64,000 nt of DNA from Bacteroidota bacterium (GCA_015222055.1 JADFUR010000066.1:7933-71932), one strand, 5' to 3'. Counted from the stretch's first letter, positions 1 through 49,413 are shown. Notes: generated from the sequence alone by a model not told the origin. Made by a program: numbers and translations.

Positions 1-530
1 CCAACAGTAAATTCGTAAGTTACAGAATCAATTTTTGGACAAATGGGCATTGTGCAAGTAGATGTGTATTCATCTCCTTTCCATAAAACAGAAATATTAT
101 AGATATTGCCCGGAACTCCCTGCAATTTTGTTGTCTTATAATAACCGATTTTCCCTCTTGTATTGTCAATCCCAACAAAAGAAGAATCCCATTTATTAGT
201 CTCTGAATTATAAGTATAATCATACTGCTCCGAAAAATCACTTATAAGTGTATCCGAATTGCCGACATTATCAGTAATGATAATTTGAGCATTTAACACA
301 GGTACAAAACGGTTATCAACAAAATAACCCGAAGTATCCATATATTCAAAATTCTCCCCAAATGCGTTTTTCCCTAATGTCAAACGAACAAAATAAGGAG
401 GCTCGCCGTCTGTTATCATTGCATCAATAATAATTTTGGAATCTTGTTCCGGCAAATTCATATTATACTCTTCAGTACAACAGTTGAGCAAAAATAATGT
501 TACGAATAGACATAAATATCTTGTGGTCAT
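1..530 (-). CDS. DUF4249-family lipoprotein (5' part; runs off the window edge)
   Basis: Not in the ORF track. ATG at 530 reads MTTRYLCLFVTLFLLNCCTEEYNMNLPEQDSKIIIDAMITDGEPPYFVRLT...: lipobox Cys and a DUF4249-type N-terminus, directly downstream of a TonB receptor. Confidence 0.8.
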   Translation of the reverse strand, partial: MTTRYLCLFVTLFLLNCCTEEYNMNLPEQDSKIIIDAMITDGEPPYFVRLTLGKNAFGENFEYMDTSGYFVDNRFVPVLNAQIIITDNVGNSDTLISDFSEQYDYTYNSETNKWDSSFVGIDNTRGKIGYYKTTKLQGVPGNIYNISVLWKGDEYTSTCTMPICPKIDSVTYEFTV

Positions 531-535
531 AATTG

Positions 536-2902
536 TTAAAATGATAAATTATAAATTATTGAAGGAACTATTCCATACAAATACATTTTATAAGATTGTA
601 TATTCAAAAAATCGTAATCGTCTTGTTTAAGATATAGAGCAAAAACATTTTTTCTATTATAAACATTGTTAATGGCAAATACCCATTTTGATTTACACCG
701 TTTAGCTTCTTCGCTTTTTTTACTTTTGTAAGTGGCTGCAATATCTAACCTGTGGTATATCGGCAATTTATAGTTATTTCGTTCAGGATAGTCAAAAAAA
801 GTAGCATTATCTACTAAAAATATTTGTGTTGGCACAGTAACAAATCCACCCGATGAAATTTTAAAGGTGGAAGATAACAACCATCTGTTATTGATTTTGT
901 AAATACCAACAGCTGTAAAATTGTGACGAATATCGTAACGTGGTGAATAATCATCATCATTGTTAATACCATTTATTTTATATTTTGTTTTGGCGAGTGT
1001 GTAGCCTAACCAAGCTGTTAGCTTATCAGAGTGTTTCTCTAATAAAAATTCTATCCCAGTACTCCAGCCTTTACCTGCCAATATTTGTGTCTCAACATTT
1101 TTATTCATAAACAAATCTGCATTGTCAACAAAGTCAATAATGTTGTGTAACTGTTTGTAATAAGATTCTATTGTTAATTCTAAGCCTTGATAAAATGTTC
1201 TATAAAATCCTAAAACGTATTGATGTGAAGATTGAGGCTTTATATAGCTGTCAGCAGGCAGCCATACGTCTGTCGGCAAACCTACTGAAGAATTACTAAG
1301 CATATGTAAATATTGCTTGGTGTAGGCATAAGCCAACTTAATAGTATTGTTATTGTTTATCTTAAATCTTACAGAAAATCTTGGTTCTAGTCCATGATAA
1401 AAATTTATTATTTCTCCTTTTGCATAAACAGTGCTGTCAGTAATATTATTCATTAAAGGTGTATAATTGTATACAGTAGCCTGCCCATAATTCATAAAAA
1501 CAGTGTAACGTAAGCCATAGTTTAATGTAAGTCTTTTAGTTATTTTTTGCTCATTATTAAAATATCCTATTAACTCTACAGACCTTTTACCATCCAAAGA
1601 GAAAGGCACTATAATGGAAGTAGTATCTTTGGGTGATATTTTACCGGGTTCAAAGTAGTGATAAACGCTTGACAAGCCTGTTTTTATTCTGTTTTTCTGA
1701 TTTGGATAATAAGTGAAATCATATTTTAAACCTAACTCTTGTATATTAGATTTCCACTCATAGTTGCGAATGTCTTCTTTGATAGACGAATTGTAATTAT
1801 AGTTACTATAATAGGTGCTTAGGTTTGAAAAAAGTTTGCCTGAAAAAAGGTGATTCCATCTTAATGTGCTGGTTAAGTTACCCCATTCCAATTGGTTTTC
1901 ATTATTTAGCGAATAGCAATAAAAATGGTCACGACCTGTATATGTGCTTAAATAAATGTGATTATTCTCGTCTACTTTGTAGTTGATTTTAGCATTGAAG
2001 TCATAAAACGAAATATCGTTTTGATCGTTAAAATCATTTAACGACCTTAATTTCAATGCGTCGCCTCCTATTTTACCTCCAAACAAATTTAATGTTGTGC
2101 CTGCATAACTATATCTACCGGATACAATAAACGATGCTTTTTCTTTGACAATAGGAGCTTCTATACTCAGCCTACTTGCTAAAAGACCAACACCTGCATT
2201 TACTTTCATTTTGTTGTAATTCCCTTCTTTCATTGTAATATCTACTACTGAAGATAATCGACCACCATATTGAGAGGGAAATGCCCCTTTGTAGACAGTT
2301 ACGTTTTTAATTGCATCGGAATTGAAAGTAGAAAAAAAACCTAACGAATGTGTAGGGTTGTAAACAGGTGTTTCGTCTAATATTATCAAATTCTGGTCAT
2401 AATTCCCTCCCCTTACATAAAGGTTACTTGTTCCCTCGTTAGCCACCTGAATACCAGGTAGTAATTGCAAAGACTTTATCACATCCGGCTCACCAGTAAT
2501 TGTAGGAATTGCTTTTATTGTATTGATTGCTATTTTATTTTCACTTGTGCCTACTTCTTCAACACGTGCCCTTTGGGCTGTAACTTTGACCTCTTGCAGT
2601 TTCATATTTTGAGGTGAAAGCAAAATATCTTTTAACATATTGCTTTTTAATTCAACTTTAACTTCAAGAGATTGATATCCAATATAAGAATATACTATCG
2701 TATAATTCCCTCTTGACAAACTTGCAGAATAGAAACCATATTCATTTGAAACAGTCCCCTGTTTCATTTCTTTAACATAAACGGTTGCTCCGATTAGCGT
2801 TTCCCCATTTATAGAATCTCTGACTGTTCCATATACAATATTTATTTGGGAGAATAATCCAATTGAAAAAAAATTTAATATTATTGTTATATATAATCGC
2901 AT
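536..2902 (-). CDS. TonB-dependent receptor with N-terminal carboxypeptidase-regulatory-like domain (copy 3)
   Basis: Signal peptide, GTVRDS..GETLIGATV, plug motif GEPDVIKSLQLLPG..YVRGG..DQNL, YKGAFPSQYGGRLSSVVDI, C-terminal YHRLD..NVYNRKN..YNLSF. Confidence 0.9.
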   Translation of the reverse strand: MRLYITIILNFFSIGLFSQINIVYGTVRDSINGETLIGATVYVKEMKQGTVSNEYGFYSASLSRGNYTIVYSYIGYQSLEVKVELKSNMLKDILLSPQNMKLQEVKVTAQRARVEEVGTSENKIAINTIKAIPTITGEPDVIKSLQLLPGIQVANEGTSNLYVRGGNYDQNLIILDETPVYNPTHSLGFFSTFNSDAIKNVTVYKGAFPSQYGGRLSSVVDITMKEGNYNKMKVNAGVGLLASRLSIEAPIVKEKASFIVSGRYSYAGTTLNLFGGKIGGDALKLRSLNDFNDQNDISFYDFNAKINYKVDENNHIYLSTYTGRDHFYCYSLNNENQLEWGNLTSTLRWNHLFSGKLFSNLSTYYSNYNYNSSIKEDIRNYEWKSNIQELGLKYDFTYYPNQKNRIKTGLSSVYHYFEPGKISPKDTTSIIVPFSLDGKRSVELIGYFNNEQKITKRLTLNYGLRYTVFMNYGQATVYNYTPLMNNITDSTVYAKGEIINFYHGLEPRFSVRFKINNNNTIKLAYAYTKQYLHMLSNSSVGLPTDVWLPADSYIKPQSSHQYVLGFYRTFYQGLELTIESYYKQLHNIIDFVDNADLFMNKNVETQILAGKGWSTGIEFLLEKHSDKLTAWLGYTLAKTKYKINGINNDDDYSPRYDIRHNFTAVGIYKINNRWLLSSTFKISSGGFVTVPTQIFLVDNATFFDYPERNNYKLPIYHRLDIAATYKSKKSEEAKRCKSKWVFAINNVYNRKNVFALYLKQDDYDFLNIQSYKMYLYGIVPSIIYNLSF

Positions 2903-2909
2903 TCTTTTT

Positions 2910-3320
2910 TTATTTTGAGAGTTCTCTTACTATGGCATTTTCGATTTCAGTTTCAGAAAAAGCATCAAACATTTTTCTGTTATTAATAACTATTGTAGGA
3001 GTACCATAAAATCCTAAATCATTTATGTGTTTAAAATTTTGAATTATCTCTTCATAAATAGTAGAATCTTGCATATCTGATGAAAATTGATAAATATCTA
3101 AATCAATTTCTTGTGCTATTGACAATATCTGTTCTTGTTCAAGATTTACAGGTGATTTTTTTAGGTGTGTTTCCATTTTCACACTTTTCATCTCCCTCCA
3201 TATAAGAGGTTCCCACTTTATTAATTAACTCTGTAATAATCTCTTTATTGTTGTTTGTGTCTGTATTTTTTATTACCTCATCTTTTTGACAAGCATAAAA
3301 CCGAGCAATTATTTTATGTT
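2910..3320 (-). pseudogene. Chimeric remnant: lipoprotein N-terminus joined out of frame to the C-terminal half of a DsbA/thioredoxin-fold protein
   Basis: One frame reads IIARFYACQKDEVIKNTD (lipobox-like). The other reads SPVNLEQEQILSIAQEIDLDIYQF...LGFYGTPTIVINN (DsbA cis-Pro GTPT motif) with no CxxC. Confidence 0.6.
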
Positions 3321-5689
3321 TAAAAAATAATTGTATATCCAAGATTAATTAAAACCGGAAATAAGCTTTTTTGGTATAATTTAGTCTCTCCATTTGATGT
3401 TTTAAAAAACAAAAAATATGCATTTTGTCTATTATATAAATTATAAACACCTATTGTCCATTTACTTGATCCTTTTCTCTTTAATTTAACATAATTTAAT
3501 CCCAGATCTAACCTATGATAAGCTGGCATACGATAGCCATTCTTTTCAGAATATATGTGTACGTCATCTAATACAGTACGGTTCCCAATGTAAGAATCAG
3601 AATAATTCACATTAGCAAGCTGATACTTGCCGGAAGGTAGTGTTACACTATTTCCAGAATGATAAAGCCAAGTTCCGGAAAGTGTTATCCTATCATTAAT
3701 TTTCCAATTACATACTACTGAAATATTATGTCTTTGATCATATTTAAAAGAAAAATCCCTACCATTATTTAAATTATCAAAAGTTCGTTGGTTTTTAGAG
3801 AGGGTATACCCAATCCAACCAGTTATAATACCTTCTTTTTTCTGTATTAACAATTCAATTCCTTGGACTTTACCGACACCTCCTGTCTCAACTTTCTCAT
3901 CCCAATTTAGAGAACCATTAAAAACAAGAATTCCTTCTTTATACTCTATTAAATTGTTAAGTTTCTTAAAATACCCTTCGATACTAATTTCATAATTTTT
4001 TTTTGTTGTATGAGCAAATCCCAAAGTAATTTGTTCTGAAGATTCTGGAATTATTTTATTAGTGGAAGGAATCCACAAATCCGTTGGCAAACCCGTATTT
4101 GAATTTGTAAGTAGATGAATATTTTGTTGCATTGAGCAATATGAAGCTTTCACTGAAAATGAGGAGAATAGTAAATAGTTTATAATTATTCGTGGTTCAA
4201 CGGATTGAAACTTTTTATCATTTACAAGATAATAACCTGCCCGCAAGCCAATATTGCCGGACATTTTGTTAAAATCAAAATGATATTCTCCGTAAACAGA
4301 TATATCATCAGCATACAAATCAGTTTTTTGCTCTGGATTGTTTAAAACTGTATCGCTATCATTAAAATTGTTGTTTTGTGAATATGATACCGAACTTGGG
4401 ATGTAATAATGCTTACTGTATTTACCACCTATGCGCAAACTATTTCTAACAAACGGGATTTCAAAATCCGTTTTAATAATTACATCCTGTACTGCTGAAT
4501 TAATCAAATATTCATCCTTTAAAACCGAATTATCTGTCTCGTCAGACCTTTCTGAAAAATTAATACTTTTATATTGATATTTAGTATATGCTAACGTAAA
4601 ATTATTAAATATCTTACCACCAAAAACATGATACCAACGAAGACTTGCAGAACTATTCCCCCATTTTAGTTCAGATTCAGCATTATATATATAACTCTCT
4701 ACAGGATCTTTATTTTCCTTTTCTTTATAAAAAAATTTATCCTTGCCTTGATAAAAATTAACAAATAGTCTATCATTCTTGGATAATATATAATTGGACT
4801 TTAAATTGATATCATAAAATGTATATCCTGAGTTATATGGATTTGATACAAACCAATTATAGAAAGATGAATATAAGTCAAGATTACTTCTCCTTATTGA
4901 AAAAGCAAAGGAAGCTTTATCTTTTATTATTGGACCTTCAATAAAAAGCTTGCTTAATAATAAACTTAAACCAAGTTCCCCTTTATAGTTATACATATTA
5001 CCATCTTTATTACGCACATCCACTACAGAAGATATACGTCCGCCATATCGTGCAGGAAAACCACCTTTATATAATTCAACACTTTTAACCATTGAAGGAT
5101 CAAATACAGAATAAAGCCCACCCATATGGCTAACATTATATAATGGAACATCATCAAGTAAAAATAAATTTTGATCAGGAGTACCACCACGAACATACAG
5201 TCCATTGTTACCTTCGGAACCGGATTGTATGCCGGGCATTAATTGATAAACCTTTAAAATATCTGGTTCGCCTGTTATACTCGGTAATATTTTTATTTGT
5301 TCTAATGGAATTTCAAGTTTGCTTATTTCACATAAATTTTCTAGCTTTTTTTTATTTGCAGTTATTTGCACTTCTTTAAGGTTTATTCCTGCAATAAGAT
5401 ATATATTTACTGCTGTATCTGATTGCGGTCTTACAGTTAAATACAAAGAGCCATACCCAACATATGAATATTGGAAAGTGTAAGTTTCCCTTTTTGTTAA
5501 AACAATGGAATAAAAACCAAATTTATTGGTTACATGTCCAATATGTTTTGTCGTATCATAAATGGTTGCTCCAATTAAATATTCTCCTGAATTTTGATCT
5601 ATGATATAACCACTAAGTGTTAATTTTTGCGAGAATGAAAAAAAATTTAAAATGAATATAAAACTAATACTTAAAATTATTTTTTGCAT
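3320..5689 (-). CDS. TonB-dependent receptor (copy 2)
   Basis: GEPDILKVYQLMPG, YVRGGTPDQNL, YKGGFPARYGGRISSVVD, YRMPAYHRLDLG, terminal F. Confidence 0.9.
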   Translation of the reverse strand: MQKIILSISFIFILNFFSFSQKLTLSGYIIDQNSGEYLIGATIYDTTKHIGHVTNKFGFYSIVLTKRETYTFQYSYVGYGSLYLTVRPQSDTAVNIYLIAGINLKEVQITANKKKLENLCEISKLEIPLEQIKILPSITGEPDILKVYQLMPGIQSGSEGNNGLYVRGGTPDQNLFLLDDVPLYNVSHMGGLYSVFDPSMVKSVELYKGGFPARYGGRISSVVDVRNKDGNMYNYKGELGLSLLLSKLFIEGPIIKDKASFAFSIRRSNLDLYSSFYNWFVSNPYNSGYTFYDINLKSNYILSKNDRLFVNFYQGKDKFFYKEKENKDPVESYIYNAESELKWGNSSASLRWYHVFGGKIFNNFTLAYTKYQYKSINFSERSDETDNSVLKDEYLINSAVQDVIIKTDFEIPFVRNSLRIGGKYSKHYYIPSSVSYSQNNNFNDSDTVLNNPEQKTDLYADDISVYGEYHFDFNKMSGNIGLRAGYYLVNDKKFQSVEPRIIINYLLFSSFSVKASYCSMQQNIHLLTNSNTGLPTDLWIPSTNKIIPESSEQITLGFAHTTKKNYEISIEGYFKKLNNLIEYKEGILVFNGSLNWDEKVETGGVGKVQGIELLIQKKEGIITGWIGYTLSKNQRTFDNLNNGRDFSFKYDQRHNISVVCNWKINDRITLSGTWLYHSGNSVTLPSGKYQLANVNYSDSYIGNRTVLDDVHIYSEKNGYRMPAYHRLDLGLNYVKLKRKGSSKWTIGVYNLYNRQNAYFLFFKTSNGETKLYQKSLFPVLINLGYTIIF

Positions 5690-5693
5690 TTAA

Positions 5694-6647
5694 TTATTTT
5701 ATATAAATTAATTCTTTTGTTGTTCCCCAATATCCTGCAAAAATCCCATAACCATTTACAACATTAGTATACATTGATCGAGGTTCACCCATAAAAATAA
5801 AATCTCTCAGGTCTTCACCTTGGAGTTGTTGATTGAAAACATGCCGAGTGTAATACTTACGATATAGATAATAAGATTTACTAACAGAACGAAGTTCTGC
5901 ATAACATCCACTATTTGTTTCAAACCTAGTATTATACCCCCCTCTTTTAACTTTTAGGGTATAGGTTTCCCCATTAAATAATTCGTCTGAAAAAAATAAG
6001 GATGAAGGTAAATAATCAACATCCCCTTCGTTAAGCAGAACTGGATCGGTAATTTTAACATCTCCATCCCAATTCCAATAATTTTTCTCATTGTCATATT
6101 TATGAAGATGATATATAAGTAGTTCATAATAATTTTCTTCTTGAGGAGGATCAGTAAAAGTTATCATAGCTTCCACACAAAAATCACCATATTCATCAAC
6201 ACCCGCCGGGTAAATTAATATTGCTTTGTCAATATTTACTATGTTTGGTATTGAATCGGATGTGATTATTGATGGTAGCTTATCGGATAACACTTCAACT
6301 TTATATTCCTTATTAGGAATTGGTCGAATATTCGTTTCTAAAATTCCAGATTGTAAAAACGTATCAATTATCAGGTTATTTTCTTCATAAAACAAAAAAT
6401 GCAGCTTCTCATTTATTGAATCATAAGAATTTAAAGGTGAAGTAGTGTATGATAAATTGAAGGTGAAATAATTTTTCGGGTTAAAAACAGAATTTATAAC
6501 CAATGATTTTGTGTCTTCTAATTTGCAATTTAATTCTTTAGTGCAGGATGTATATAGAATTAAAAAAACAATTATTAATACGTTTATTAATGTTAATTTC
6601 CGCAACAAATTTTTGCGGGTATTTTTATTAAAATAGGATTTAAGCAT
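5694..6647 (-). CDS. DUF4249-family lipoprotein
   Basis: Lipobox YTSC, FTDPPQEENYY, FFSDELFNG, LRSVSKSYYLY, EPRSMYTNVVNGYGIFAGY. Confidence 0.85.
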   Translation of the reverse strand: MLKSYFNKNTRKNLLRKLTLINVLIIVFLILYTSCTKELNCKLEDTKSLVINSVFNPKNYFTFNLSYTTSPLNSYDSINEKLHFLFYEENNLIIDTFLQSGILETNIRPIPNKEYKVEVLSDKLPSIITSDSIPNIVNIDKAILIYPAGVDEYGDFCVEAMITFTDPPQEENYYELLIYHLHKYDNEKNYWNWDGDVKITDPVLLNEGDVDYLPSSLFFSDELFNGETYTLKVKRGGYNTRFETNSGCYAELRSVSKSYYLYRKYYTRHVFNQQLQGEDLRDFIFMGEPRSMYTNVVNGYGIFAGYWGTTKELIYIK

Positions 6648-6877
6648 AGGTAAAATTTATGTTAAAAAATAAAGAGCTAATTATAATAACTACCTAACTC
6701 TTTATTAAAATTATTTAGTCATTAAAAATTAAACAAATTGAAAGCAAAAAAAAACAAAATAAAAATTCACAATTCTTAAAGATTTTAAAGAATAAAATAG
6801 ATCTTTCAATTTGCAATTTAGCTTTTCTAAATTTTTTCTTTAATCTTTTATTAATATAATTTGCTATTTTATTTCAA

Positions 6878-9214
6878 TTAAAATATCACAGAATAACTTA
6901 CAAAAGGGGTTATTGGCGCATAAGATATACCAGTTAAAGCATTTCGTTGCGAAGATCTCTCCATATAGAATGGATTTAATCTATTATAAATATTATATAT
7001 TCCCAAATACCATATCCTTGTTGTTTTTTCACGCTTATTAGTATAATTAAAGGCTAAGTCCAGACGATGATATATTGGTAAACGAATATTATTGTAATCT
7101 GAAATATAGCTATATGAAAGACTCGTATTAAGCTCACCAATGTCCTCAATAACAAACCGTTCATACCCATAGGTCTTATTTTGTCCTGACATTAATATCC
7201 AATTAGCTACAAACATAATCTTTTTATTTAATTGATATTCAGTCTGAATGTTCAGATTATGCGGTCTGTCATATATATAGGAAAATTCTTTACCATTGTT
7301 GATATATTCATAAGTCCTGAAAGAGCGGGAATAAGTATATGAGATTTGTCCTTTGATTTTTCCATTGTTCTTTTGTGCAAAAAATTCTATTCCGTATGCT
7401 CTGCCATTTCCAATAGTTACTTTATCTTGCCAGTCTGTTTTTACATCCATAAAATCTGTTCCTTGTTTGTATTTAATAAGATTATCAAGCGTTTTGTAAT
7501 AAATAGAAAGTCCAACATATATATTTTTAAGTAATTTTAGCTTACATCCGGCATCATAAATTTCAGCACTTATTGGGTTTAGGTTTTCTGTTGACGGAAC
7601 CCATAAATCTGTCGGCATCCCCAAACTTGAATTCGTTAGTAAATGCAAATATTGATGAACTTGAGAATATGAAGTCTGAATATTTATATTTTTTGATATA
7701 TTGCAAATCAGGTTCATACGTGGCTCAATAAAATAATAAAGTTTTCCGTTGACATAAAAAGCATTGGCATTAACTCCAAATATTGTATTGAATTTGCCAA
7801 TGGACAAATTATCCTGTGCATATAAAGAATATTCGTAAGCTGTTGCAGTAGCTGAACTTATTTGTTTATCTTTAACAATAGTATCTTTCAAACTCGAATT
7901 ATCAAAAAATTGTTCACTCGTAAAATTTGGAAAAAACTTTTTTTGAGAAACAGTAGCACCAAATTTTATCTTGTTGTTTTTTGACATAAAATAATCTACA
8001 TTTAATTTATAACCCAAATCTTCGATGCCTGAACCATTGTAAAGATCATACTGTTTTGTTACTATGTCGTCTTCAATTTTTTCTTGCACGAAATATTCAT
8101 TTGCCGAATTATATTTATATTTTGTGTAAAATAATGTATTATTCATTGACAATTTATGACCAAATATTTTCATCCAACGTAAAGTTCCGGTATTATTTCC
8201 CCATGCTATTTCTTGTTTTGTATTTATTTTCAAAATATCCGGATCATGATTGTCTTTTTTATCATTTTTAACAAAACCCTTGTCTTTACCGCTATAAAAA
8301 CTTAGATATAAATGGCTTCTTTCCGAAAGTTTATAATTCCACTTAGCATTGACATCATAAAAATAATAACCTGTTATTGTATTATCTGCAATAGCTTTAG
8401 ATATCGGACGAAATAAAGCATCAATGTAAGTCCGTCTCGCTGTAACTATAAAAGAAGATTTATCTTTAATTACCGGCCCTTCAAGTATAAATTTTGACGA
8501 AATAAGACCTATTGTGAATTTTCCTCTTATTTTTCCCAAATCTCCTTCTTTCATATATAAATCAACAACCGACGATACATGTCCATGATATTCTGCCGGC
8601 ATACCGCCTTTTATAAGTTTTACTCTTTTTAGGGCGTCTGTATTGAAAACAGAAAAAAAACCAAAAACATGATTTACATTATAGACAGGTACACCATCAA
8701 GTAAAAATAAATTTTGGTCAGGACTACCGCCTCTCACGTTTAAGCTGGCACTTCCTTCATTGCCACTTGTTACGCCCGGTGCAAGTTGTAATGCCTTTAA
8801 CACATCTGTTTCGCCACCGATAACTGGCATTTTGCTTATTTTTGCCATTGGCAAATTATAATAATTCATTTGTGGAATATCTGCTTTAACAATTATTTGT
8901 TGTAGGCTTATGTCTATTTGATATAAATCTATATTCAATACTGTATCATTCTGACTGTTGATATTTATGGTTTTTTTTCTGTATCCTAACAAAATAATAT
9001 CTAATGTGTTTTTTCCCTTTGGTAAACTTATGCTGTAAAAGCCATATTCATTACAAAAAGTGAATATATTTTTACTTCTTTCAACAATTGCTACACTTAT
9101 TAGACTTTCCCTTGACAATGAATCACGAATTATTCCGCTTACGGTGTGGTTTTGTGCAGTAATTGATGATATATAAATAAAAAAAAGTGTAAAATATAAT
9201 ATTGCTTTTTTCAT
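6878..9214 (-). CDS. TonB-dependent receptor (copy 1)
   Basis: GETDVLKALQLAPGV, NVRGGSPDQNL, RLPIYHRLDL, NIYNRLNPF, terminal YSVIF. Confidence 0.9.
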   Translation of the reverse strand: MKKAILYFTLFFIYISSITAQNHTVSGIIRDSLSRESLISVAIVERSKNIFTFCNEYGFYSISLPKGKNTLDIILLGYRKKTININSQNDTVLNIDLYQIDISLQQIIVKADIPQMNYYNLPMAKISKMPVIGGETDVLKALQLAPGVTSGNEGSASLNVRGGSPDQNLFLLDGVPVYNVNHVFGFFSVFNTDALKRVKLIKGGMPAEYHGHVSSVVDLYMKEGDLGKIRGKFTIGLISSKFILEGPVIKDKSSFIVTARRTYIDALFRPISKAIADNTITGYYFYDVNAKWNYKLSERSHLYLSFYSGKDKGFVKNDKKDNHDPDILKINTKQEIAWGNNTGTLRWMKIFGHKLSMNNTLFYTKYKYNSANEYFVQEKIEDDIVTKQYDLYNGSGIEDLGYKLNVDYFMSKNNKIKFGATVSQKKFFPNFTSEQFFDNSSLKDTIVKDKQISSATATAYEYSLYAQDNLSIGKFNTIFGVNANAFYVNGKLYYFIEPRMNLICNISKNINIQTSYSQVHQYLHLLTNSSLGMPTDLWVPSTENLNPISAEIYDAGCKLKLLKNIYVGLSIYYKTLDNLIKYKQGTDFMDVKTDWQDKVTIGNGRAYGIEFFAQKNNGKIKGQISYTYSRSFRTYEYINNGKEFSYIYDRPHNLNIQTEYQLNKKIMFVANWILMSGQNKTYGYERFVIEDIGELNTSLSYSYISDYNNIRLPIYHRLDLAFNYTNKREKTTRIWYLGIYNIYNRLNPFYMERSSQRNALTGISYAPITPFVSYSVIF

Positions 9215-9220
9215 TTTTTT

Positions 9221-10162
9221 TTAATTTTGAGAAGGAACTATTAAAAAGGAATCTTCGACAGATGATATTCCGGCGAAAACTCCGGTTCCGTTTTTTACGT
9301 TTGAATATATTATAACCGGTTCTGTAAAGGGATTGTCTAACGATTTTAAATATAAATATGAGCTTTTATAAAAAGCATAGGCATCATAAGACAATGAATT
9401 TAACCCCAATTTTATGGGAAATTCTGAAATGTAATCAAATTTATAATCATCAATTTTAAATTTGGTATTTATCGCATAAGTATGACCGTCAAATATCTCA
9501 TCCGAAAAAAAGGCAATTTTTAAAGCAGCTAAAGAAATATTTTCATAGTATTCTCTATTGTAACGGGGTTCAATAGCCGGATCATAAGATATAAAAAACT
9601 TATTACTCCAAAAATCATAATAGTTTGTGGTTCCGGATTTATCTTTAAAAAAAATATTTACTGAAAAATCTAAAATTCCGTCAGGAACAGAAGAAGCTAA
9701 ATTTCTGTCAAAAATAATAGAGTCTTTTAAGGCTTCCCCGTTTATTTGAATAGAATCTATTGGTATTGCTTCCGGAATATATGTTTCAGCATAAACAGTA
9801 TCATAGTCCGGCACATGTATTTTTAAATTATAATGATGTTTTTCTGTCGGTATAAAATATTGCGAATAATACCAACCTTTTTCTACAAAATTAATTTGCG
9901 GAATTTCTTTATAAGTTAATTTTTCCTGAAAAATATTGTCTTCGTATAAATAAACATCGGCTTTGCTAATATAATCTTTATCTGCAAGAATAGTTCCAAA
10001 AAGAGTATCGCCTACTAAATATGATAATCTCACCCTTACAGTATCGCCTGCCTTAAGAAAACAACTTACATTTACCTGAGGTATATGATCAAAGTCATAA
10101 TAAAAATCTTTTCTGCATGACAAAACAGATATAATTATTAAAATTAGAATTGTTTTTTTCAT
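9221..10162 (-). CDS. DUF4249-family lipoprotein
   Basis: Lipobox VLSC, FKDKSGTTNYY, FFSDEIFDG, NPFTEPVIIYSNVKNGTGVFAG. Confidence 0.85.
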   Translation of the reverse strand: MKKTILILIIISVLSCRKDFYYDFDHIPQVNVSCFLKAGDTVRVRLSYLVGDTLFGTILADKDYISKADVYLYEDNIFQEKLTYKEIPQINFVEKGWYYSQYFIPTEKHHYNLKIHVPDYDTVYAETYIPEAIPIDSIQINGEALKDSIIFDRNLASSVPDGILDFSVNIFFKDKSGTTNYYDFWSNKFFISYDPAIEPRYNREYYENISLAALKIAFFSDEIFDGHTYAINTKFKIDDYKFDYISEFPIKLGLNSLSYDAYAFYKSSYLYLKSLDNPFTEPVIIYSNVKNGTGVFAGISSVEDSFLIVPSQN

Positions 10163-10180
10163 AAGTTCTTATTTTAATAA

Positions 10181-10216
10181 AAGGGCTGTCTAAAATATTT
10201 TTTATAAACAGCCCCT
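10181..10216 (-). terminator. Hairpin (GGGCTGT...ACAGCCC) between the 374-aa lipoprotein and the first DUF4249 gene
   Basis: 7-bp GC-rich inverted repeat, followed on the minus strand by TTTT. Confidence 0.6.
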
Positions 10217-10224
10217 GTAATATA

Positions 10225-11349
10225 TTAATGCTTAATGTATAACACTAAATTAGAATTAGTATATTTTGCGGTAGAAGGATCACTTTTTAATATCATATAA
10301 GTTCCCATATCATCATCCCCTTCTTGATATTTTGATTGAATAGACAATTCTTTGCTAAGAGTGACAATTCCAGCCAATGTAATAGCTGCTTTAATTTTAA
10401 TACTGCCCGTTATAGTTATATTATTATCTTTTTCATAACATTTAACATACAACCTACTATCATTAGAAGGCCAACTACAAAATTTATGATTATATGTTTT
10501 ATATACCTCATCAACTTTGCTTCTTGTAGGGTGCGAATACAATTGTCCATAAGGATATTGTGAATTGTCGCTATGTATGTCTATGTATATTTCAGGCTTT
10601 CCATAAAACCATGGTTCATAATTACTTAAATCATTAAATTTTAATTTAATTAAATATAAAGAGTTAGGAATATAATCAAAGTTATCATAAACACCTGTAG
10701 CACCACCACTACCATCATCAGGAGGAAGAGCCATATCTTTCAATTTTCCATTTTCATCAATTCTTTCGCAGCGACCAAGAACTATAACAGGAAAATCAGG
10801 TGCTTTGTCTAAACTAAGCCAAACAACATTACCATCTTGGTCAAATGCTTTAATTTTGGTAAACGTTTTCTCATCAAAATTAGCAGGTATGTAAGTAACC
10901 AAAGGAACATAATTTTTTGTATCCCATTTGTCGCAATTAACAGGTACAGATATTTGAAAATCCGGAATATTATTTACCATTTGTTCCAAATTATCTTGAG
11001 CTTCATTTTCGCTTTTTTGCTCTTTTTGGCTTATGCTCTTAACAAAAAAGTCGTTAATGCTCACACTATTACTGCTTTTCAATTGACGTCTTGCTATTCG
11101 TTCGTAAAGAACATCATAATCACCATCAAATTGCTTATCCGCTTCTTGTTTTATCAATTCGCGAAATTCTTCGTTTTTCACAGCATCTACAACAAGAAGT
11201 GCCATTTTTTCTAATGCAACATTTCTTTGAGTGATTGCATCACTATTTTCTGTTTCCCTATTAACAGGATTAATCTCTTCGTTTTTATTACAACTTGAGA
11301 TAATTAAAACTGTCAGCAAACAGAAAAATAATTTATTAATTTTTCTCAT
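10225..11349 (-). CDS. Uncharacterised lipoprotein, DUF3103-like
   Basis: Lipobox ISSC. N-terminal domain FDGDYDVL...AFDQDGNVVWLSLDKAPDFPVIV, linker PPDDGSGGATG, and C-terminal EPWFYGKPEIY resembling the DUF3103 EPWxxGxxEIY motif. Confidence 0.6.
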   Translation of the reverse strand: MRKINKLFFCLLTVLIISSCNKNEEINPVNRETENSDAITQRNVALEKMALLVVDAVKNEEFRELIKQEADKQFDGDYDVLYERIARRQLKSSNSVSINDFFVKSISQKEQKSENEAQDNLEQMVNNIPDFQISVPVNCDKWDTKNYVPLVTYIPANFDEKTFTKIKAFDQDGNVVWLSLDKAPDFPVIVLGRCERIDENGKLKDMALPPDDGSGGATGVYDNFDYIPNSLYLIKLKFNDLSNYEPWFYGKPEIYIDIHSDNSQYPYGQLYSHPTRSKVDEVYKTYNHKFCSWPSNDSRLYVKCYEKDNNITITGSIKIKAAITLAGIVTLSKELSIQSKYQEGDDDMGTYMILKSDPSTAKYTNSNLVLYIKH

Positions 11350-11490
11350 TTTAAATTAATTTTAAGTTAATAAAATAGTTATCAGAAATCTTTTCGGCCA
11401 AAAAGAAATTTCATAACAAAAGAATGAAAAAAAAGTATTCTTTCAATATTCGTTAAACGACAAAAAACCAAGAGGTTAAAAGTAGTTCAT

Positions 11491-11519
11491 AAACGGTACG
11501 TTTTAAGTCGCAATCGGTA
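11491..11519 (-). promoter_or_regulatory. Candidate LytTR binding direct repeat TACCGATT-N13-TACCGTTT
   Basis: aaacggta at 11491 and aatcggta at 11512 (21-bp period), about 140 bp upstream of the lipoprotein start and next to a LytTR gene. Confidence 0.55.
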
Positions 11520-11910
11520 AAAATCGAGACCTAATCGATTCGGAAAACCCTAATTGCCTGACGTAGTGAATTTTACCCCCCCCATTTTTATTGTATGAAT
11601 TTAATAATTTTATTAATTTCGGTTTTTGCCTTCTCGAAACTTTAATTTCTTTATTATTTTGAAAAATTATTTTTAATTCTCCGGGTAAAAACTTTTTTAT
11701 ATAGCAAATGTTTATCAGATGGGATTTATGGCAACGAAAAAAATTCTTGCCAAGAGATTCGCTAATTTGTTTTAAACTCTTATTAATTGAATAACTATTA
11801 TCTCCTTCACAAAAAATCTCGGAAAGATGATCTTTTACTGTGCAATAAATAATTTTGCCTGTGTCAATACTATAATAGTTACCAAATGAATTTATAAATT
11901 TATGGTGCAT
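11503..11910 (-). CDS. Stand-alone LytTR DNA-binding protein (no receiver domain)
   Basis: IIYC..KDHLSEIF, SLKQISESL, FFRCHKSHLIN, IKVSRRQK motifs. Confidence 0.85.
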   Translation of the reverse strand: MHHKFINSFGNYYSIDTGKIIYCTVKDHLSEIFCEGDNSYSINKSLKQISESLGKNFFRCHKSHLINICYIKKFLPGELKIIFQNNKEIKVSRRQKPKLIKLLNSYNKNGGGKIHYVRQLGFSESIRSRFLPIAT

Positions 11911-12165
11911 GCTTATTAAACTTTTATTAATTTTTTAAACTTCAAACAAATTGAAGGCAAAAAAATGAGAAAATCAAATTTTTTTGGCTTTTAGCAATAT
12001 GTTTAAAAACAGTTTTTGATAAAAATTTAGAATCAAATAAAAATCAATAAAAAAATTTATAAAACACTTAATAATACTTTAGATTTGCATCTTATTTTTA
12101 GTTTTTTGATTATTCAAAAATCATTTGTACTTTAGTTTCAATTTAAATCCCCAAAAAACATAATT

Positions 12166-12780
12166 ATGCACATTGCAATTGCAGGTAATATTGGTTCAGG
12201 AAAAACCACACTAACAAGATTGTTATCAAAACATTACAACTGGGAAGCCCGTTACGAAGATGTTGATGAAAATCCTTATTTAAATGATTTTTATGAAGAT
12301 ATGCAACGATGGTCGTTTAATCTTCAAATATATTTTCTTAACAGTCGTTTTAATCAAATTCTAGAAATAAGAAAGTCAGGGAAAACAGTTATTCAAGACC
12401 GTACAATATATGAAGACGCACATATTTTTGCTCCCAACTTGCACTCAATGGGCTTAATGACAAGTCGTGATTTTAATAATTATTCATCTCTGTTTCAATT
12501 AATGTGTTCTTTGGTAAAGCCTCCCGATTTATTGATATATCTTCGAGCTACAGTGCCTACCTTAGTCAGTCAAATTCAAAAAAGAGGCAGGGAATATGAG
12601 AATTCTATTCGTCTCGATTATCTTAAAAGATTAAACGAAAGATACGAAGCCTGGATAAGTTCTTATAATCTTAGTAAATTATTAATTGTTGATGTCGATA
12701 ATCGTAATTTCATTGACAAACCTGAAGATTTAAGTTCTATTATTGATAAAATTGATGCTGAAATTCACGGTCTTTTTTAA
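12166..12780 (+). CDS. Deoxynucleoside kinase
   Basis: P-loop GNIGSGKTT, DRTIYED, RGREYE. Confidence 0.95.
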   Translation: MHIAIAGNIGSGKTTLTRLLSKHYNWEARYEDVDENPYLNDFYEDMQRWSFNLQIYFLNSRFNQILEIRKSGKTVIQDRTIYEDAHIFAPNLHSMGLMTSRDFNNYSSLFQLMCSLVKPPDLLIYLRATVPTLVSQIQKRGREYENSIRLDYLKRLNERYEAWISSYNLSKLLIVDVDNRNFIDKPEDLSSIIDKIDAEIHGLF

Positions 12781-12902
12781 TTTTTTTATAATCAAGCATC
12801 AACATACTTTTCTGAGAGTATTAATAAGTTAAGTAATTAATTTTTGCTGAATTTGTTGTATTAAGTTAATTTTGTAATTTTTATCGTTATATACAATTAT
12901 AG

Positions 12903-14723
12903 ATGAATATTAAATCGACCAATACTCTAACATCAAAAATAAGGCTTTACTCATTTATTGCTATAATATTATTTACGGCATCGTGTGCTAAAATTGTTAT
13001 GCCTACAGGTGGCAAAAAAGACATCACACCTCCACAAATTTTAAAAAGCTCTCCAGAAAATTTTTCTGTTAATTTTAAAGAAAAAAAAATTTATGTCAAA
13101 TTCGATGAGTTTTTCCAATTAAAAAATCTAAATAAGGAATTATTGGTTTCTCCACCATTAAAGGAGCAACCCAAAATTAGAGTAGCCGGGAAAAACCTTA
13201 TTATTGAAATAAGCGACACCTTAAAAGAAAACACAAGCTATAACATTAATTTTCATGAGGCTATTTCAGATTTAAACGAAAATAATATTTTGGAAAACTA
13301 TCAATATTGCTTCTCAACAGGCGATTATATTGATTCCCTTTATGTTGACGGACTTGTTTTAGATGCTTTCAGCTTAGAACCTAAAGAATTTGTTAAAATA
13401 ATGTTGTATGAAAATTACAGTGACTCAACACCATATAAAAAAATTCCTGATTTTGTTTCGCAATCAAATAAAAACGGACAGTTTTCAATTAACAATATAA
13501 AACCCGGCAATTACCATATGTTTGCTTTAAACGATGCAAACAACAATCTTTTATTTGACCAGCCAAGTGAAGAAATTGCATTTATCGATTCGTTAATAAC
13601 ACCCAATTTGGAAAAAGTCGAGCTTATTGATACTCTTAAAATTATTGAAGCAATTGTTGAAAACGACACAACATATAAAGATTCGATTGTTAGGCATACA
13701 GAATTTGTTTCAACAATAAAAAATCTTGAATTAAATATGTTTCAAGAAGATTATAAGAAGCAATATATTACTGAAAGCAAAAGAGATAAAAAAGAAATAT
13801 GCACTTTTATATTCAATAAACCGTCAGACAAAAAATGTGAAATTTCTCCACTTAATTTCGACACAAAATCTGAAAAATGGAATATTATAGAAAAGAACAT
13901 TACTAATGACACAATAATTTGTTGGCTCATTGATTCAACAATTTACAAAAGAGACAGCCTTATTTTTGAATGCAAATACAACAAAAAAAATATTTTAATG
14001 CAAGATTCTCTTATTACAGACACCTTAATTTTTGCTTACATTGAAAAAGAAAAACCAAGAAAAAAAAGGAAACGGAAAGATAAAAAAGCTGAAGAACCAA
14101 AAAAAGAAATTTTTTTAAACATCGTTTCTAACATAAAAAGTGCATTTGACTTAAACAAAAATATTGTTTTAACAACACCATCGCCTGTTAAAAATTACGA
14201 TTCAACAAAAATCCAATTATTTTTAATAGCCGATTCTACAGAAACACTTCAAGCAACAAAATTCTCAAAGGATTCAATTTTTTTGCGAAAATTCAGCATA
14301 ACCAACAAATGGGAAGAAGAAACAACGTATAAATTAATAATCTATCCTAAAGCATTTACCGACATATACAATTATGCGAACGACACAACTATTATAAATT
14401 TCAAAACTAGGGAGACTGATTATTATGGCAACATTAAATTAGAGATTACAAATATCAGCACAAATTCAATTATTCAGCTGTTAAATGATAAAGAAAAATT
14501 ATTACGACAATATTTCATATCAAACGACACAACTTTAAACATAAATTATCTTTATCCAAAAAAATATATTATTAAATTAATTTCTGACAAAAACAATAAT
14601 AAAAAATGGGATAGCGGTAATTTATTAAAAAATAATCAACCCGAAAAAATCTATTATTACAAAGACGCAATAGAAATTAAATCAAACTGGGATAATGAAA
14701 TAGGATGGGATATTGACAAATAA
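12903..14723 (+). CDS. Conserved Bacteroidota lipoprotein with an Ig-like (Big_5) domain
   Basis: ASCAKIVMPTGGKKDITPP, FSTGDYIDSL, DKNNNKKWDSGN..QPE. Confidence 0.8.
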   Translation: MNIKSTNTLTSKIRLYSFIAIILFTASCAKIVMPTGGKKDITPPQILKSSPENFSVNFKEKKIYVKFDEFFQLKNLNKELLVSPPLKEQPKIRVAGKNLIIEISDTLKENTSYNINFHEAISDLNENNILENYQYCFSTGDYIDSLYVDGLVLDAFSLEPKEFVKIMLYENYSDSTPYKKIPDFVSQSNKNGQFSINNIKPGNYHMFALNDANNNLLFDQPSEEIAFIDSLITPNLEKVELIDTLKIIEAIVENDTTYKDSIVRHTEFVSTIKNLELNMFQEDYKKQYITESKRDKKEICTFIFNKPSDKKCEISPLNFDTKSEKWNIIEKNITNDTIICWLIDSTIYKRDSLIFECKYNKKNILMQDSLITDTLIFAYIEKEKPRKKRKRKDKKAEEPKKEIFLNIVSNIKSAFDLNKNIVLTTPSPVKNYDSTKIQLFLIADSTETLQATKFSKDSIFLRKFSITNKWEEETTYKLIIYPKAFTDIYNYANDTTIINFKTRETDYYGNIKLEITNISTNSIIQLLNDKEKLLRQYFISNDTTLNINYLYPKKYIIKLISDKNNNKKWDSGNLLKNNQPEKIYYYKDAIEIKSNWDNEIGWDIDK

Positions 14724-48434: not shown

Positions 48435-48605
48435 ATTATTATTTGAGGTTGCAAATTTAATAAAAAATTTAAATTTTCAAACAATTTTTATTAATTTTTA
48501 TTGTTAGAATAATTTATTTTTTATTCGTTAAAAATTTCAATCAGAATAAAAACAAATTAGTTGTTTTTTACAAAAAAATGAAGGTGTTGAAAATACAAGG
48601 TAGAA

Positions 48606-49170
48606 ATGATTAAAAATGCCTACATAGATTTATATGTAAATGGAAACTTTAAAGAAAAACTATTGTTCAATAATAAAGCATACATATCAAATTACACACC
48701 AAAAACAAACGACCATCTCAAAATTTTTTCTTCTACTCAAACATACGATACCATAAATGCTGAGGCAACAATACCGAACAAAACGCTAATAAACAATGAA
48801 GCCGTTGAATTTACTAAAAATGGCTTTATTGACAAGGAAGGATTTCTTAATGATTTGATAAAATTCCAATTTGAAGACCCAGCAAATACTGAAAATTTCT
48901 ACGAAGCTTTTATTTCTTTTACGGTTGAAACAGATTCAACAATAAACACATACCAACCCTATTTATATTATAGCAACAATCCAATAATTGAAAACGAAGA
49001 TCAACTTATTTATGAACTAAGATCCATTTTATTTTCAGATGAACTTTTTGATGGTAAAACTGCATTTATTGATATTGCATTTGAAAAACACTATATCAAT
49101 AATAATGAAAGAATAAAACAAACTCGTCTAATTTTTATGTCAATATCAAAAGAATACTACTTGTATAAAA
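48606..49170 (+). pseudogene. DUF4249 lipoprotein remnant (no signal peptide, C-terminus lost)
   Basis: FEDPANTENFY, LFSDELFDG and SISKEYYLYKKS match the DUF4249 copies at 5.7 and 9.2 kb. Confidence 0.8.
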
Positions 49171-49413
49171 AGAGCAGAAGCTTATCATCGACTCGATTTA
49201 GGATTAAATTTCCGAAAAGAAATAAAATGGGGTACACGAACGTTGAATTTAAGTGTTTATAATCTTTACAATCGCAAAAACCCTTATTTTTATACTCTTA
49301 GTACAAAGCCTACATCTAACATTAACAGTAACGGTAACGAAAAAGTTTATTTACTTCGTAATAGTTTATTTCCTTTTATACCATCAATAAGCTATTCTAT
49401 TAAATTTAAGTAA
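49171..49413 (+). pseudogene. C-terminal 80 codons of a TonB-dependent receptor
   Basis: A shifted frame reads RAEAYHRLDLGLNFRKEIKWGTRTLNLSVYNLYNRKNPYFY...SLFPFIPSISYSIKFK*. Confidence 0.88.

Follow-up and report, generated by a model that had tools for sequence, protein, structure and literature searches.

Three stacked TonB-dependent transporter/DUF4249 pairs with private accessory lipoproteins in a Bacteroidota genome

Gene content of the locus

The first part of a 64,000-nt stretch of DNA from a Bacteroidota bacterium (GCA_015222055.1, JADFUR010000066.1:7933-71932; hereafter, the window) is taken up by nine units, all on the minus strand (Table 1). These nine units had been described by a first-pass annotation from the sequence alone, and all of them are real. 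Read along the minus strand, they are a LytTR gene, the gene for a 374-aa DUF3103-like lipoprotein (P), two pairs in which a DUF4249 gene (D) precedes the gene for a TonB-dependent transporter (T), a scar, and a third pair in which the transporter comes first (LytTR, P, D1-T1, D2-T2, scar, T3-D3). D3 is cut by the edge of the window: the gene continues for 423 nt outside it and encodes 317 amino acids in all (G000:C33:7509-8462). Past D3, a convergent gene for a 216-aa protein ends the locus, and housekeeping-looking genes follow.

Table 1. Features of the locus, in positions of the window
Feature	Position	Strand	Description
18-nt motif, copy 1	11944-11961	-	TTTGCYTTCAATTTGTTT; the LytTR start codon lies 34 nt downstream
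LytTR	11503-11910	-	135 aa; PF04397 (71.6 bits, E = 6.8e-20); stand-alone; possible regulator of the locus
P	10225-11349	-	374 aa; lipobox IISSC; PF11301 (DUF3103, 38 bits)
D1	9221-10162	-	PF14054 (105.9 bits); putative lid of T1
T1	6878-9214	-	778 aa; CarbopepD_reg_2 and Plug; non-SusC
18-nt motif, copy 2	6731-6748	-	in the T1-D2 gap; the D2 start codon lies 83 nt downstream
D2	5694-6647	-	PF14054 (78.0 bits); putative lid of T2
T2	3320-5689	-	789 aa; CarbopepD_reg_2 and Plug
Scar, part 1	3139-3342	-	lipobox and ~40 residues; N-terminal remnant of a ~305-aa lipoprotein
Scar, part 2	2910-3191	-	C-terminal 74-93 aa of a DsbA-like lipoprotein
T3	536-2902	-	788 aa; CarbopepD_reg_2 and Plug
D3	1-530	-	first 176 of 317 aa; PF14054

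The gaps within the pairs are 6 nt (D1-T1), 4 nt (D2-T2) and 5 nt (T3-D3); the other gaps are 62 nt (P-D1), 153 nt (LytTR-P), 230 nt (T1-D2) and 417 nt (T2-T3). Scans for regulatory signals were uninformative: we found 86 sites resembling sigma-70 promoters in this AT-rich DNA, versus 77.9 expected, and two terminator-like sites, both on the plus strand, versus 3.8 expected. A DNA search with the whole locus against 20 relatives gave only fragmentary matches (63-94%), and we did not find an orthologous locus in five genomes of the same family (66-96% complete).

The LytTR protein has no receiver domain according to Pfam and so falls outside the AgrA-type response regulators (20 bits, versus a cut-off of 400). 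It may regulate the locus, because its own gene and D2 are both preceded by an 18-nt motif of which the 3.75-Mb genome has just these two exact copies. Copy 1 of the motif sits inside an element of ~70 nt that is also present ahead of three genes elsewhere in the genome (on contigs C32, C38 and C57). The ~70-nt element probably acts as a promoter, and the 18-nt motif may reflect promoter sequence common to the two genes and not LytTR binding.

The transporter/DUF4249 pairs

The first-pass annotation described diverged receptors of about 780 amino acids that share four motifs. Indeed, T1, T2 and T3 are just 32-35% identical to each other, and all four of the quoted motifs are present in their translations. 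Each contains a plug domain (PF07715) at 48.9, 45.2 and 42.5 bits, respectively (the cut-off is 23.9), and the barrel domain (PF00593) had no match in any of them at E ≤ 0.01. In a profile search of the PDB, only the N-terminal part and the plug of the transporter were matched; the match to the SusC homologue 5t3r covers the first ~240 of the 774 positions in the profile. The plug is followed by some 560 residues, and each of the three proteins has phenylalanine as its last residue.

The locus is like SusC/SusD PULs in that the transporters combine an N-terminal carboxypeptidase-regulatory-like domain with a plug and are accompanied by a putative lid lipoprotein and by extra, presumably surface-exposed, lipoproteins. 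In contrast to those loci, T1-T3 do not match the SusC model (TIGR04056) at E ≤ 0.001, the Pfam scan found no SusD family and no glycoside hydrolase among the nine ORFs (as the first-pass annotation had noted), and the barrels are ~780 instead of ~1000 amino acids long. Given the lack of a match to TIGR04056 and of SusD among the nine ORFs, we do not place the transporters in the SusC/RagA family or the locus among the classical PULs.

All three D proteins exceed the PF14054 cut-off of 28.5 bits, with D3 scoring 44.2 bits over the 176 residues in the window and 86.7 bits as a whole gene. Their lipoboxes read VLSC, YTSC and LLNC. A comparison of D1 to PDB sequences gave nothing below E = 0.13, and NCBIfam has no family for P, D1-D3 or T1.

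For each pair, the best matches of T and D come from a single locus. T1 and the transporter of locus L010 are sisters (57-58% identity) within a group of P-linked transporters (SH-aLRT 97-98), and the best match of D1 in our set of loci is the D protein of L010 (38%). T2 and D2 are nearest to a pair on contig C20 (45% and 38%, respectively). T3 is nearest to a transporter on contig C40 (46%) and is 43% identical to the transporter of genome G300, and D3 is nearest to the D protein on C40 (31%). The C40 transporter, which is the closest paralogue of T3 in the genome, has an STN domain and a neighbouring FecR gene. Receptors that pass on a signal when they take up ligand are built in this way. 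The genome encodes eight T/D pairs in total, and of 201 genomes sampled from the phylum, 134 have DUF4249.

The main text of Price 2023 (PMC11003636; bioRxiv 10.1101/2023.03.17.533168) describes cofitness and AlphaFold-Multimer contacts for BT2172/BT2173 from Bacteroides thetaiotaomicron, with the cofitness being genetic support for joint action of transporter and lid, and states that the subfamily of transporters to which BT2172 belongs almost always adjoins a DUF4249 gene. As at our locus, that pair combines a non-SusC transporter with a putative DUF4249 lid, and there is no SusD. A 2025 preprint names BT2172 a signal transduction TBDT, and the C40 paralogue is likewise a signal-transducing form. 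We infer that the pairs are of the BT2172/BT2173 kind, each a non-SusC transporter with a putative lid, where the kinship of T1-T3 to BT2172 is drawn from DUF4249 adjacency. Because they are of this kind and because the genome has eight of them, the T/D pairs in themselves are not new. Unlike BT2172/BT2173, three pairs are stacked here, in both gene orders, and they come with P and with the lipoprotein/DsbA-like scar, neither of which appears in the main text of Price 2023.

A contig from a close relative bears on whether such pairs are gained and lost. In public metagenome run X1, record 2 covers positions 1362-2910 and then 6878-7087. It is ~98% identical over T3 and connects the T1 end with the beginning of T3 by ~358 nt, so it skips 2911-6877 and has neither D2-T2 nor the scar. 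This suggests that T/D pairs come and go as cassettes, and it lends support to the first-pass proposal that these modules are stacked and exchanged. The bridging contig could be chimeric, because it is a single assembled record that runs through repeat-like promoter sequence. Separately, contig cover in the metagenome runs was low over 3281-4920, which we did not count as evidence.

The accessory proteins

The match of P to DUF3103 exceeds the cut-off of 25 bits, covers only positions 10-145 of the 351 in the profile, and is the sole Pfam match of P at E ≤ 0.01. Our literature searches found no paper on this family. The top row for P in a structure search of the Atlas was a DUF3103 cluster (TM 0.63/0.69). 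The N-domain of P (residues ~38-206) gave a confident predicted model (pLDDT 94.8). This model had no good counterpart in Foldseek (best E = 0.38) or in a VIA-align comparison to 48,161 chains (best Z = 3.2, none at Z ≥ 5), and a profile search had no matches at E ≤ 1 among PDB sequences. The modelled N-domain thus appears to match no solved structure, which does not by itself prove that its fold is new. The C-domain (residues 228-374) is predicted to be a C2-like beta sandwich: VIA aligned 106 residues to 7atp_A (Z = 9.6, rmsd 2.5), dozens of C2 rows had Z of 7-9, and the best Foldseek match had E = 1.2e-3, while the model of the whole of P is of moderate confidence (pLDDT 73.7). Across homologues of P, the N-domain is conserved and the C-terminal parts are variable.

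P and its homologues appear to be lipoproteins: a lipobox was found by pattern match in 76 of 89 homologues, and its cysteine is nearly invariant in the alignment of all 89. Lysine is at the +3 position in 54% of the homologues and aspartate or glutamate is at +4 in 41%. In P itself the region reads CNKNEE, which we take to resemble the surface-export signal of Bacteroidota. AI structure prediction of T1 (115-778) with P (42-374) scored 0.10 and 0.01, where the mark is 0.32, and counts neither way.

Part of the P homologues precede a transporter or a D gene. Of 80 homologous loci, 22 have T and/or D downstream on the same strand; among those with at least 4 kb of sequence downstream, 16 of 51 do. 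This depends on similarity to P (12 of 18 at 250 bits or more, 2 of 13 at 200-250 bits, and 2 of 20 below 200 bits). In an independent sample of genomes, T was downstream in 3 of 9 matches to P, of which 8 were evaluable. L010, with the best matches to T1 and D1, also contains a homologue of P, and a remote second member of the family (414 aa, E = 5e-12) lies upstream of a T/D pair on contig C28. Gene order, either P-(Q1)-T-D or P-D-T, is conserved between the Bacteroidales and the Cytophagales and also on one Calditrichota contig. (Q1 may be lipocalin-like, judging from sub-threshold matches.) From this synteny, P would seem to be a conserved operon partner of T/D pairs, which is new here.

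In the other direction there is no such link. Because DUF4249 is found in about two thirds of the 201 genomes and P in just 9 of them, this type of pair does not need P in general. The first-pass proposal that each pair serves a cognate upstream lipoprotein thus holds from the side of P (22 of 80 loci, and 3 of the 8 evaluable matches) but not from the side of the pairs. Furthermore, 58 of the 80 loci have no T or D nearby, and many of these carry small ORFs instead, so the core function of P is not tied to TonB transport. These small ORFs often start with a signal peptide and end in an aromatic residue; 2 of 10 had sub-threshold matches to PF13505, and there was one lead from the Atlas. They may encode small outer-membrane barrels. 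Among 94 ORFs that neighbour the 57 P loci outside our list of 23 P-T/D loci, no Pfam family was recurrent (the best was Por_Secre_tail, with 3).

The second set of accessory genes survives only as the scar. Part 1 is 43% identical over 51 amino acids to a 305-aa lipoprotein of G300 (lipoprotein X; L111:7824-8741; pairwise E = 5e-7). Part 2 matches only positions 120-190 of 191 in PF01323 and is 57% identical to the end of an intact 337-aa protein of G300, whose CNVC lies ~60 residues upstream of the part that survives here. The CxxC part is missing, so what is left here does not qualify as a DsbA-like oxidoreductase. In G300, the lipoprotein gene and the DsbA-like gene are both intact and lie upstream of a T3-type pair, which bears out the first-pass reading of a lipoprotein/DsbA scar. 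The scar fuses the 5' end of the lipoprotein gene to the 3' end of the DsbA-like gene, and this make-up is new here.

The C20 pair, which is the nearest relative of D2-T2, is preceded by a 381-aa lipoprotein without a Pfam or NCBIfam family. Because the P profile matches its signal peptide only, and because BLAST gives no link to lipoprotein X, it is a third, unplaced accessory protein.

Probable function and alternatives

We lean, by a modest degree, towards the locus being three separately evolved uptake cassettes, stacked together, with each lineage having its own private upstream exported accessory proteins. TonB-driven import aided by private accessory proteins is, in our view, the most likely function. 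Each cassette would comprise a non-SusC transporter with a DUF4249 surface lipoprotein as its lid, as proposed for BT2172/BT2173. Cassette 1 would be the conserved three-gene operon P-D1-T1, with P probably exposed at the surface, where it might capture ligand for the lidded transporter or present it, in the manner of the hemophore-like proteins and surface binding lipoproteins that serve other transporters. Cassette 3 (T3-D3) would have had a four-gene ancestor (lipoprotein X, DsbA-like lipoprotein, T and D) whose two accessory genes shrank to the scar by an internal deletion. Cassette 2 (D2-T2), which is absent from the one close-relative contig, would sit between the others with a promoter-like element of its own, and control of the locus may lie with the stand-alone LytTR protein. 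The working model is shared with BtuB/BtuG, XusA/XusB and HmuR/HmuY, where, as given in the main text of Price 2023, a non-SusD surface lipoprotein binds a small ligand and passes it to a TonB barrel; those belong to unrelated protein families, and ligand binding by D or P is putative here.

Pairs of the DUF4249 type are widespread, and particular lineages carry private conserved accessories, namely P with its unmatched fold, a lipoprotein with a DsbA-like enzyme, or FecR. To our knowledge, no substrate or import assay has been reported for any member, with BT2172/BT2173 having cofitness only. The accessory proteins are handles on the ligands, for instance by pull-downs with P or by mapping the LytTR regulon. 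Our results also tie the unstudied family DUF3103 to outer-membrane transport, and the hint of strain-level cassette loss suggests that these loci are part of a variable surface repertoire.

A broader idea, which we find possible but doubtful, is that DUF3103-like lipoproteins form an unrecognised surface class that needs a barrel encoded directly downstream (either a lidded TBDT or a small barrel). The N-domain, with a new fold, would be the active part, in ligand capture or in attack on a rival's barrel, and the variable C-terminal part would dock the partner. BT2172-type pairs would be a chassis that is gained, lost, and re-equipped with P, with lipoprotein X and the DsbA-like enzyme, or with FecR.

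The first-pass annotation proposed that the barrel/DUF4249 pair exports, displays or protects the upstream lipoprotein and is not a nutrient importer. The restriction of accessory lipoproteins to cassette lineages would fit this, as would the recurrence of P with some barrel, if the small ORFs with sub-threshold matches are barrels. We found nothing for a role in export, display or immunity itself. Against it are the cofitness of BT2172/BT2173 (Price 2023, main text), the plug domains and importer-type N-terminal architecture of T1-T3, the wiring of the C40 paralogue to FecR/STN signalling, and the many genomes in which the pair works without such cargo, and we consider it unlikely. We know of no TonB-dependent transporter that exports lipoproteins.

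It is similarly improbable that P is an antibacterial protein, diffusible or borne by vesicles, with an outer-membrane barrel of competitors as its target, and with the adjacent barrel being the producer's resistant replacement for the target. There is a precedent in BSAP loci, where, as reported in PMC4999547, the gene for the exported protein adjoins that for a resistant orthologue of the target, an outer-membrane barrel. As in those loci, P has a scattered distribution, and a single hint exists that strains gain or lose such genes; moreover, the N-domain of P is conserved while its C-terminal parts vary, and its C-domain resembles C2 domains including perforin's (Z = 8.5-9.6). In contrast to BSAPs as described there, P has no MACPF domain (or other toxin family in Pfam), is a lipoprotein with a nearly invariant lipobox cysteine, and lies in a conserved co-oriented operon. 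The retention of gene order from Bacteroidales to Cytophagales and the Calditrichota contig is what one would expect of a stable machine and not of an arms race, and the strain-variable cassette is D2-T2, not the one with P.

We give no more credence to the idea that the cassettes take in a secreted small protein or peptide, be it a signal, a bacteriocin or a metal-binding peptide, to which LytTR responds. LytTR heads the locus and shares the genome-unique 18-mer with D2, LytTR-family genes flank 4 of the 23 related P-T/D loci, and Peptidase_C39 is near 2 of 23. On C38, an 84-aa ORF whose leader resembles the double-glycine type comes after a paralogue of LytTR, and the dedicated DsbA-like gene of the ancestral cassette 3 suggests a disulfide-bonded partner. 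However, there is no peptide gene in the locus, no sensor accompanies the stand-alone LytTR protein here, and the association of LytTR with related loci is weak and partly due to shared ancestry (three of the four are close kin).

Finally, that P is a mere neighbour of T1 and D1 without a functional link is very improbable, even though most P homologues lack T/D, since same-strand adjacency recurs across several orders and in two thirds of the closest homologues, within our set of loci D1 and T1 both have their best matches in L010, which also holds a P homologue, and by a rough estimate chance alone would place a T/D pair in any one 6-kb stretch far less than 1% of the time.

Kinship of the transporter pairs

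All nine units described by the first-pass annotation were present on the minus strand, in the places it gave. P is a DUF3103-like lipoprotein, T1-T3 are TonB-dependent transporters, and D1-D3 are DUF4249 proteins (putative lids); G-, C- and L-numbers denote genomes, contigs and loci, and G000 is the source genome. The transporters contain CarbopepD_reg_2 and Plug domains and share the four motifs quoted in that annotation, yet are clearly diverged, as it had noted (32-35% pairwise identity). Its statement that SusD and glycoside hydrolases are missing also held: neither family was found in the locus, and the locus transporters had no match to the SusC family at E ≤ 0.001. Within each pair (D1/T1, D2/T2 and T3/D3) the genes are 4-6 nt apart, with wider gaps between T1 and D2 (230 nt) and between T2 and T3 (417 nt). 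The locus ends with D3, which faces a convergent gene and is truncated by the window edge; the full gene on the contig encodes 317 aa.

Genes of the locus in order of transcription, and positions of other features
Feature	Order	Location	Strand	Description
LytTR	1st		minus	stand-alone, 135 aa
P	2nd		minus	lipoprotein, 374 aa; DUF3103 match on N-terminal half (38 bits, profile positions 10-145 of 351)
D1 then T1	3rd-4th		minus	D1, DUF4249; T1, 778 aa
D2 then T2	5th-6th		minus	T2, 789 aa
DsbA C-terminal fragment	7th	window 2910-3191	minus	93 aa
T3 then D3	8th-9th		minus	T3, 788 aa
X-like ORF of the scar		window 3139-3342
~70-nt element		window 11941-12011; G000 C32:40980-41051, C38:10739-10814, C57:59647-59717		76-78% identical
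Degraded unit		window about 48591-49407 (C33:56523-57339)	plus
C20 pair, L002		G000:C20:28547-43837, at 4634-14530
C40 pair, L006		G000:C40:2405-17592, at 4706-9218
LytTR paralog		G000 C38, about 9700-10814
Relatives of C13 transporter		L093 (G202:C169); L094 (G201:C134)
Small-gene cluster, L104		G187:C5:31000-50000
ORFs upstream of P, L018		L018:539-5022

Price, Deutschbauer and Arkin (bioRxiv 2023) propose that DUF4249 lipoproteins are lids on non-SusC TonB-dependent transporters, based on cofitness of BT2172/BT2173 and AlphaFold-Multimer contacts. According to the fast.genomics paper, this transporter subfamily almost always adjoins a DUF4249 gene, across dozens of genera. Given this proposal and this statement, the type of pair is already described, and the pairs of the locus are of a known kind. 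The likeliest reading, which we put at slightly better than even, is that they are three TonB-energized importers with DUF4249 lids, each lineage having private accessory exported proteins; P would be a surface protein that captures or presents a ligand for D1-T1. The suggestion of the first-pass annotation that the pairs serve export, display or immunity seems unlikely to us.

The source genome encodes eight full pairs and one remnant, in both T-D and D-T orders, and its 9 DUF4249 matches top the counts listed for the 201 genomes sampled from the phylum. Partners co-diverge: T2 and D2 are both closest to the pair on C20, T3 and D3 to the pair on C40, and T1 and D1 to a locus from another Bacteroidales genome (L010; 57-58% identity for T and 38% for D). 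Our transporter tree comprised 26 full-length transporters; L028 (a weak match from another family) and the fragmentary transporters of L013, L017, L026, L038 and L042 were left out. On C40, a FecR gene is followed by an 878-aa STN-bearing transporter and then by DUF4249, which is the architecture of a ligand-sensing importer and makes this a signal-transducing version of the pair.

The C20 pair has its own 381-aa Cys- and Trp-rich lipoprotein upstream, of no known family; the genes downstream encode a lipoprotein of the GEVED/DUF4843 type and an M43 peptidase that carries a type IX secretion tail. Among relatives of the C13 transporter from two genomes of one genus, the order is D-T in L093 and T-D in L094, so gene order inside the pair flips over short evolutionary distances. 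Elsewhere in the window, a degraded lid-then-transporter unit retains part of a DUF4249 gene (54.9 bits to PF14054, over profile positions 47-227) and, after it, a 79-aa stretch that is 46% identical to the C-terminus of T2.

The scar upstream of T3 and possible cassette turnover

The lipoprotein/DsbA scar reported between T2 and T3 was borne out, as we matched both remnants to intact relatives in G300. A search for the 93-aa fragment across 100 genomes of the order gave matches in four other genomes, where it aligns with the C-terminal end of open frames that are 128-343 aa long (332-343 aa in three). In G300, the order is a 305-aa lipoprotein (X), a 337-aa DsbA-like lipoprotein (CNVC), T (43% identical to T3) and D (32% identical to D3). 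G225 has another lipoprotein and a DsbA-like lipoprotein upstream of a D-T pair, and there was no transporter/DUF4249 pair near the match in G229. The 93-aa fragment corresponds to the C-terminal 74-93 aa of the DsbA-like protein, with 57% identity. The second ORF of the scar is what remains of the N-terminus of X, to which it is 43% identical over 51 aa (E = 5e-7). Because the remnants are the start of X and the end of the DsbA-like gene, the scar is an internal deletion of about 1.5 kb, as estimated from the G300 gene lengths, in a former four-gene cassette, X-DsbA-T3-D3.

Cassettes (pairs with accessory genes) had also been proposed to be stacked and exchanged. Three pairs are indeed stacked; for turnover there is a hint, one metagenomic record without D2-T2. 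We compared contigs from four public metagenome runs with the locus. In run X1, one 2117-nt record, with a depth of 11 like its neighbors, spans window positions 1362-2910 with 33 differences, continues through about 358 nt of other sequence and then picks up the window again at 6878-7087. The end of T1 and the start of T3 are thus linked on this record, which has no D2, T2 or scar. Some stretches of the 358 nt are similar to the intergenic region on the T1 side and to the promoter-like element that precedes LytTR. T1, D1, P and LytTR are present on other X1 records, at 92-97% identity. This hints at cassette loss in a relative, via a single assembled record that runs through repeat-like sequence.

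Promoter-like elements and LytTR genes

The 18-mer TTTGCYTTCAATTTGTTT has exactly two copies in the 3.75-Mb genome: one lies 34 nt upstream of the LytTR start and the other 83 nt upstream of the D2 start. The motif is part of a promoter-like element, about 70 nt long, which also precedes three other genes, among them a LytTR paralog. The element has TTG and TAnnTTTG-like boxes spaced by about 20 nt, and the four genes that it immediately precedes are unrelated; it resembles a strong promoter cassette that these genes share. Of 23 related loci that combine P with a transporter pair, 4 are flanked by LytTR-family genes: one such gene is stand-alone and follows D, and the other three encode response regulators, accompanied by a histidine kinase, and come from Cytophagales that are close relatives. 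This is only suggestive of LytTR regulation of such loci, and we consider it improbable that the system is one of LytTR-controlled peptide uptake or sensing.

The C38 gene is the only LytTR paralog that we found (149 aa, 35% identity), and it lies behind the 70-nt element. The next gene is an ORF of 84 aa, with a double-glycine-like leader (…NNVQGG) closing its N-terminal part, and it may encode a bacteriocin-type peptide.

P and its neighbors

A model of whole P has two domains with a Gly-rich linker between them (pLDDT 73.7). Residues 228-374 resemble C2 beta sandwiches: a structure-alignment search (VIA) gave Z 9.6 and rmsd 2.5 over 106 residues for 7atp_A and Z 7-9 for many C2 entries, and the best Foldseek E was 1.2e-3. 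The N-domain (residues 38-206), modeled alone with 89 sequences, reached pLDDT 94.8 and pTM 0.89. Against the PDB it matched nothing by Foldseek (best E 0.38) or by sequence-profile search, and VIA found no match among 48,161 chains (best Z 3.2). R63, D75-G76-D77, W142 and E195-R196 are conserved in both alignments, C139 is nearly invariant across the 19 closest homologs, and the lipobox Cys is nearly invariant in the alignment of 89. After that Cys, 54% of 76 homologs have K at +3 and 41% have D/E at +4; compared with the consensus of the Bacteroidota lipoprotein export signal, these residues resemble it. A BSAP-like toxin with a resistant receptor has a published precedent in PMC4999547, and we give this explanation a low probability here. 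We found no mention of DUF3103 in the literature searched, from which the conserved P partner, the unmatched N-domain, the X and DsbA accessory pair and the hint of cassette loss are also absent.

Close relatives of P are few (27 clusters), and 1205 cluster representatives match at E ≤ 0.001. We scanned 80 loci encoding P homologs with profiles from the eight T and eight D proteins of the source genome. A same-strand pair lies within 6 kb downstream of P in 22 loci, and one more locus has the pair in divergent orientation. Where at least 4 kb of downstream sequence was present, a pair follows P in 16 of 51 loci: 12/18 with P scores of at least 250 bits, 2/13 at 200-250 and 2/20 below 200. Both P-D-T and P-T-D orders are seen, the latter also on a Calditrichota contig, and in Cytophagales a small lipoprotein gene, Q1, lies between P and T (16 loci). 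Isolates of Arcicella, Flectobacillus and Hymenobacter (L029, L031, L032) are among those with P-D-T. The independent sample of 201 genomes gave 9 P matches outside the source genome, with T downstream in 3 and one match truncated at the edge of its contig. The association runs in one direction only: P is found in 9 of these genomes and DUF4249 in 134. Upstream of its C28 pair, the source genome encodes another, remote member of the P family (414 aa; E 5e-12 to the P profile, nearly full length), and T1 and the C28 transporter cluster with other P-linked transporters in the tree. That P is a chance neighbor of D1-T1 is very improbable.

P homologs without a pair usually have small ORFs next downstream, many of which start with a signal peptide and end in an aromatic residue. 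Sub-threshold PF13505 matches in 2 of 10 such ORFs, plus one Atlas lead, weakly suggest small outer-membrane barrels.

At L018, same-strand ORFs of 734, 481 and 233 aa lie upstream of P-Q1-T-D. A scan of locus flanks, silent on which ORFs matched, gave two flanking ORFs each for Peptidase_C39 and ABC_tran; assigned from their N-terminal sequences only, the L018 genes would be such a peptide-export set beside the uptake module. At L104, a 529-aa P homolog lies amid a cluster of six or more small genes; their products (167-232 aa) have F or L as the last residue, and five have signal-peptide-like N-termini. Such a cluster may encode an array of small barrels in the outer membrane.
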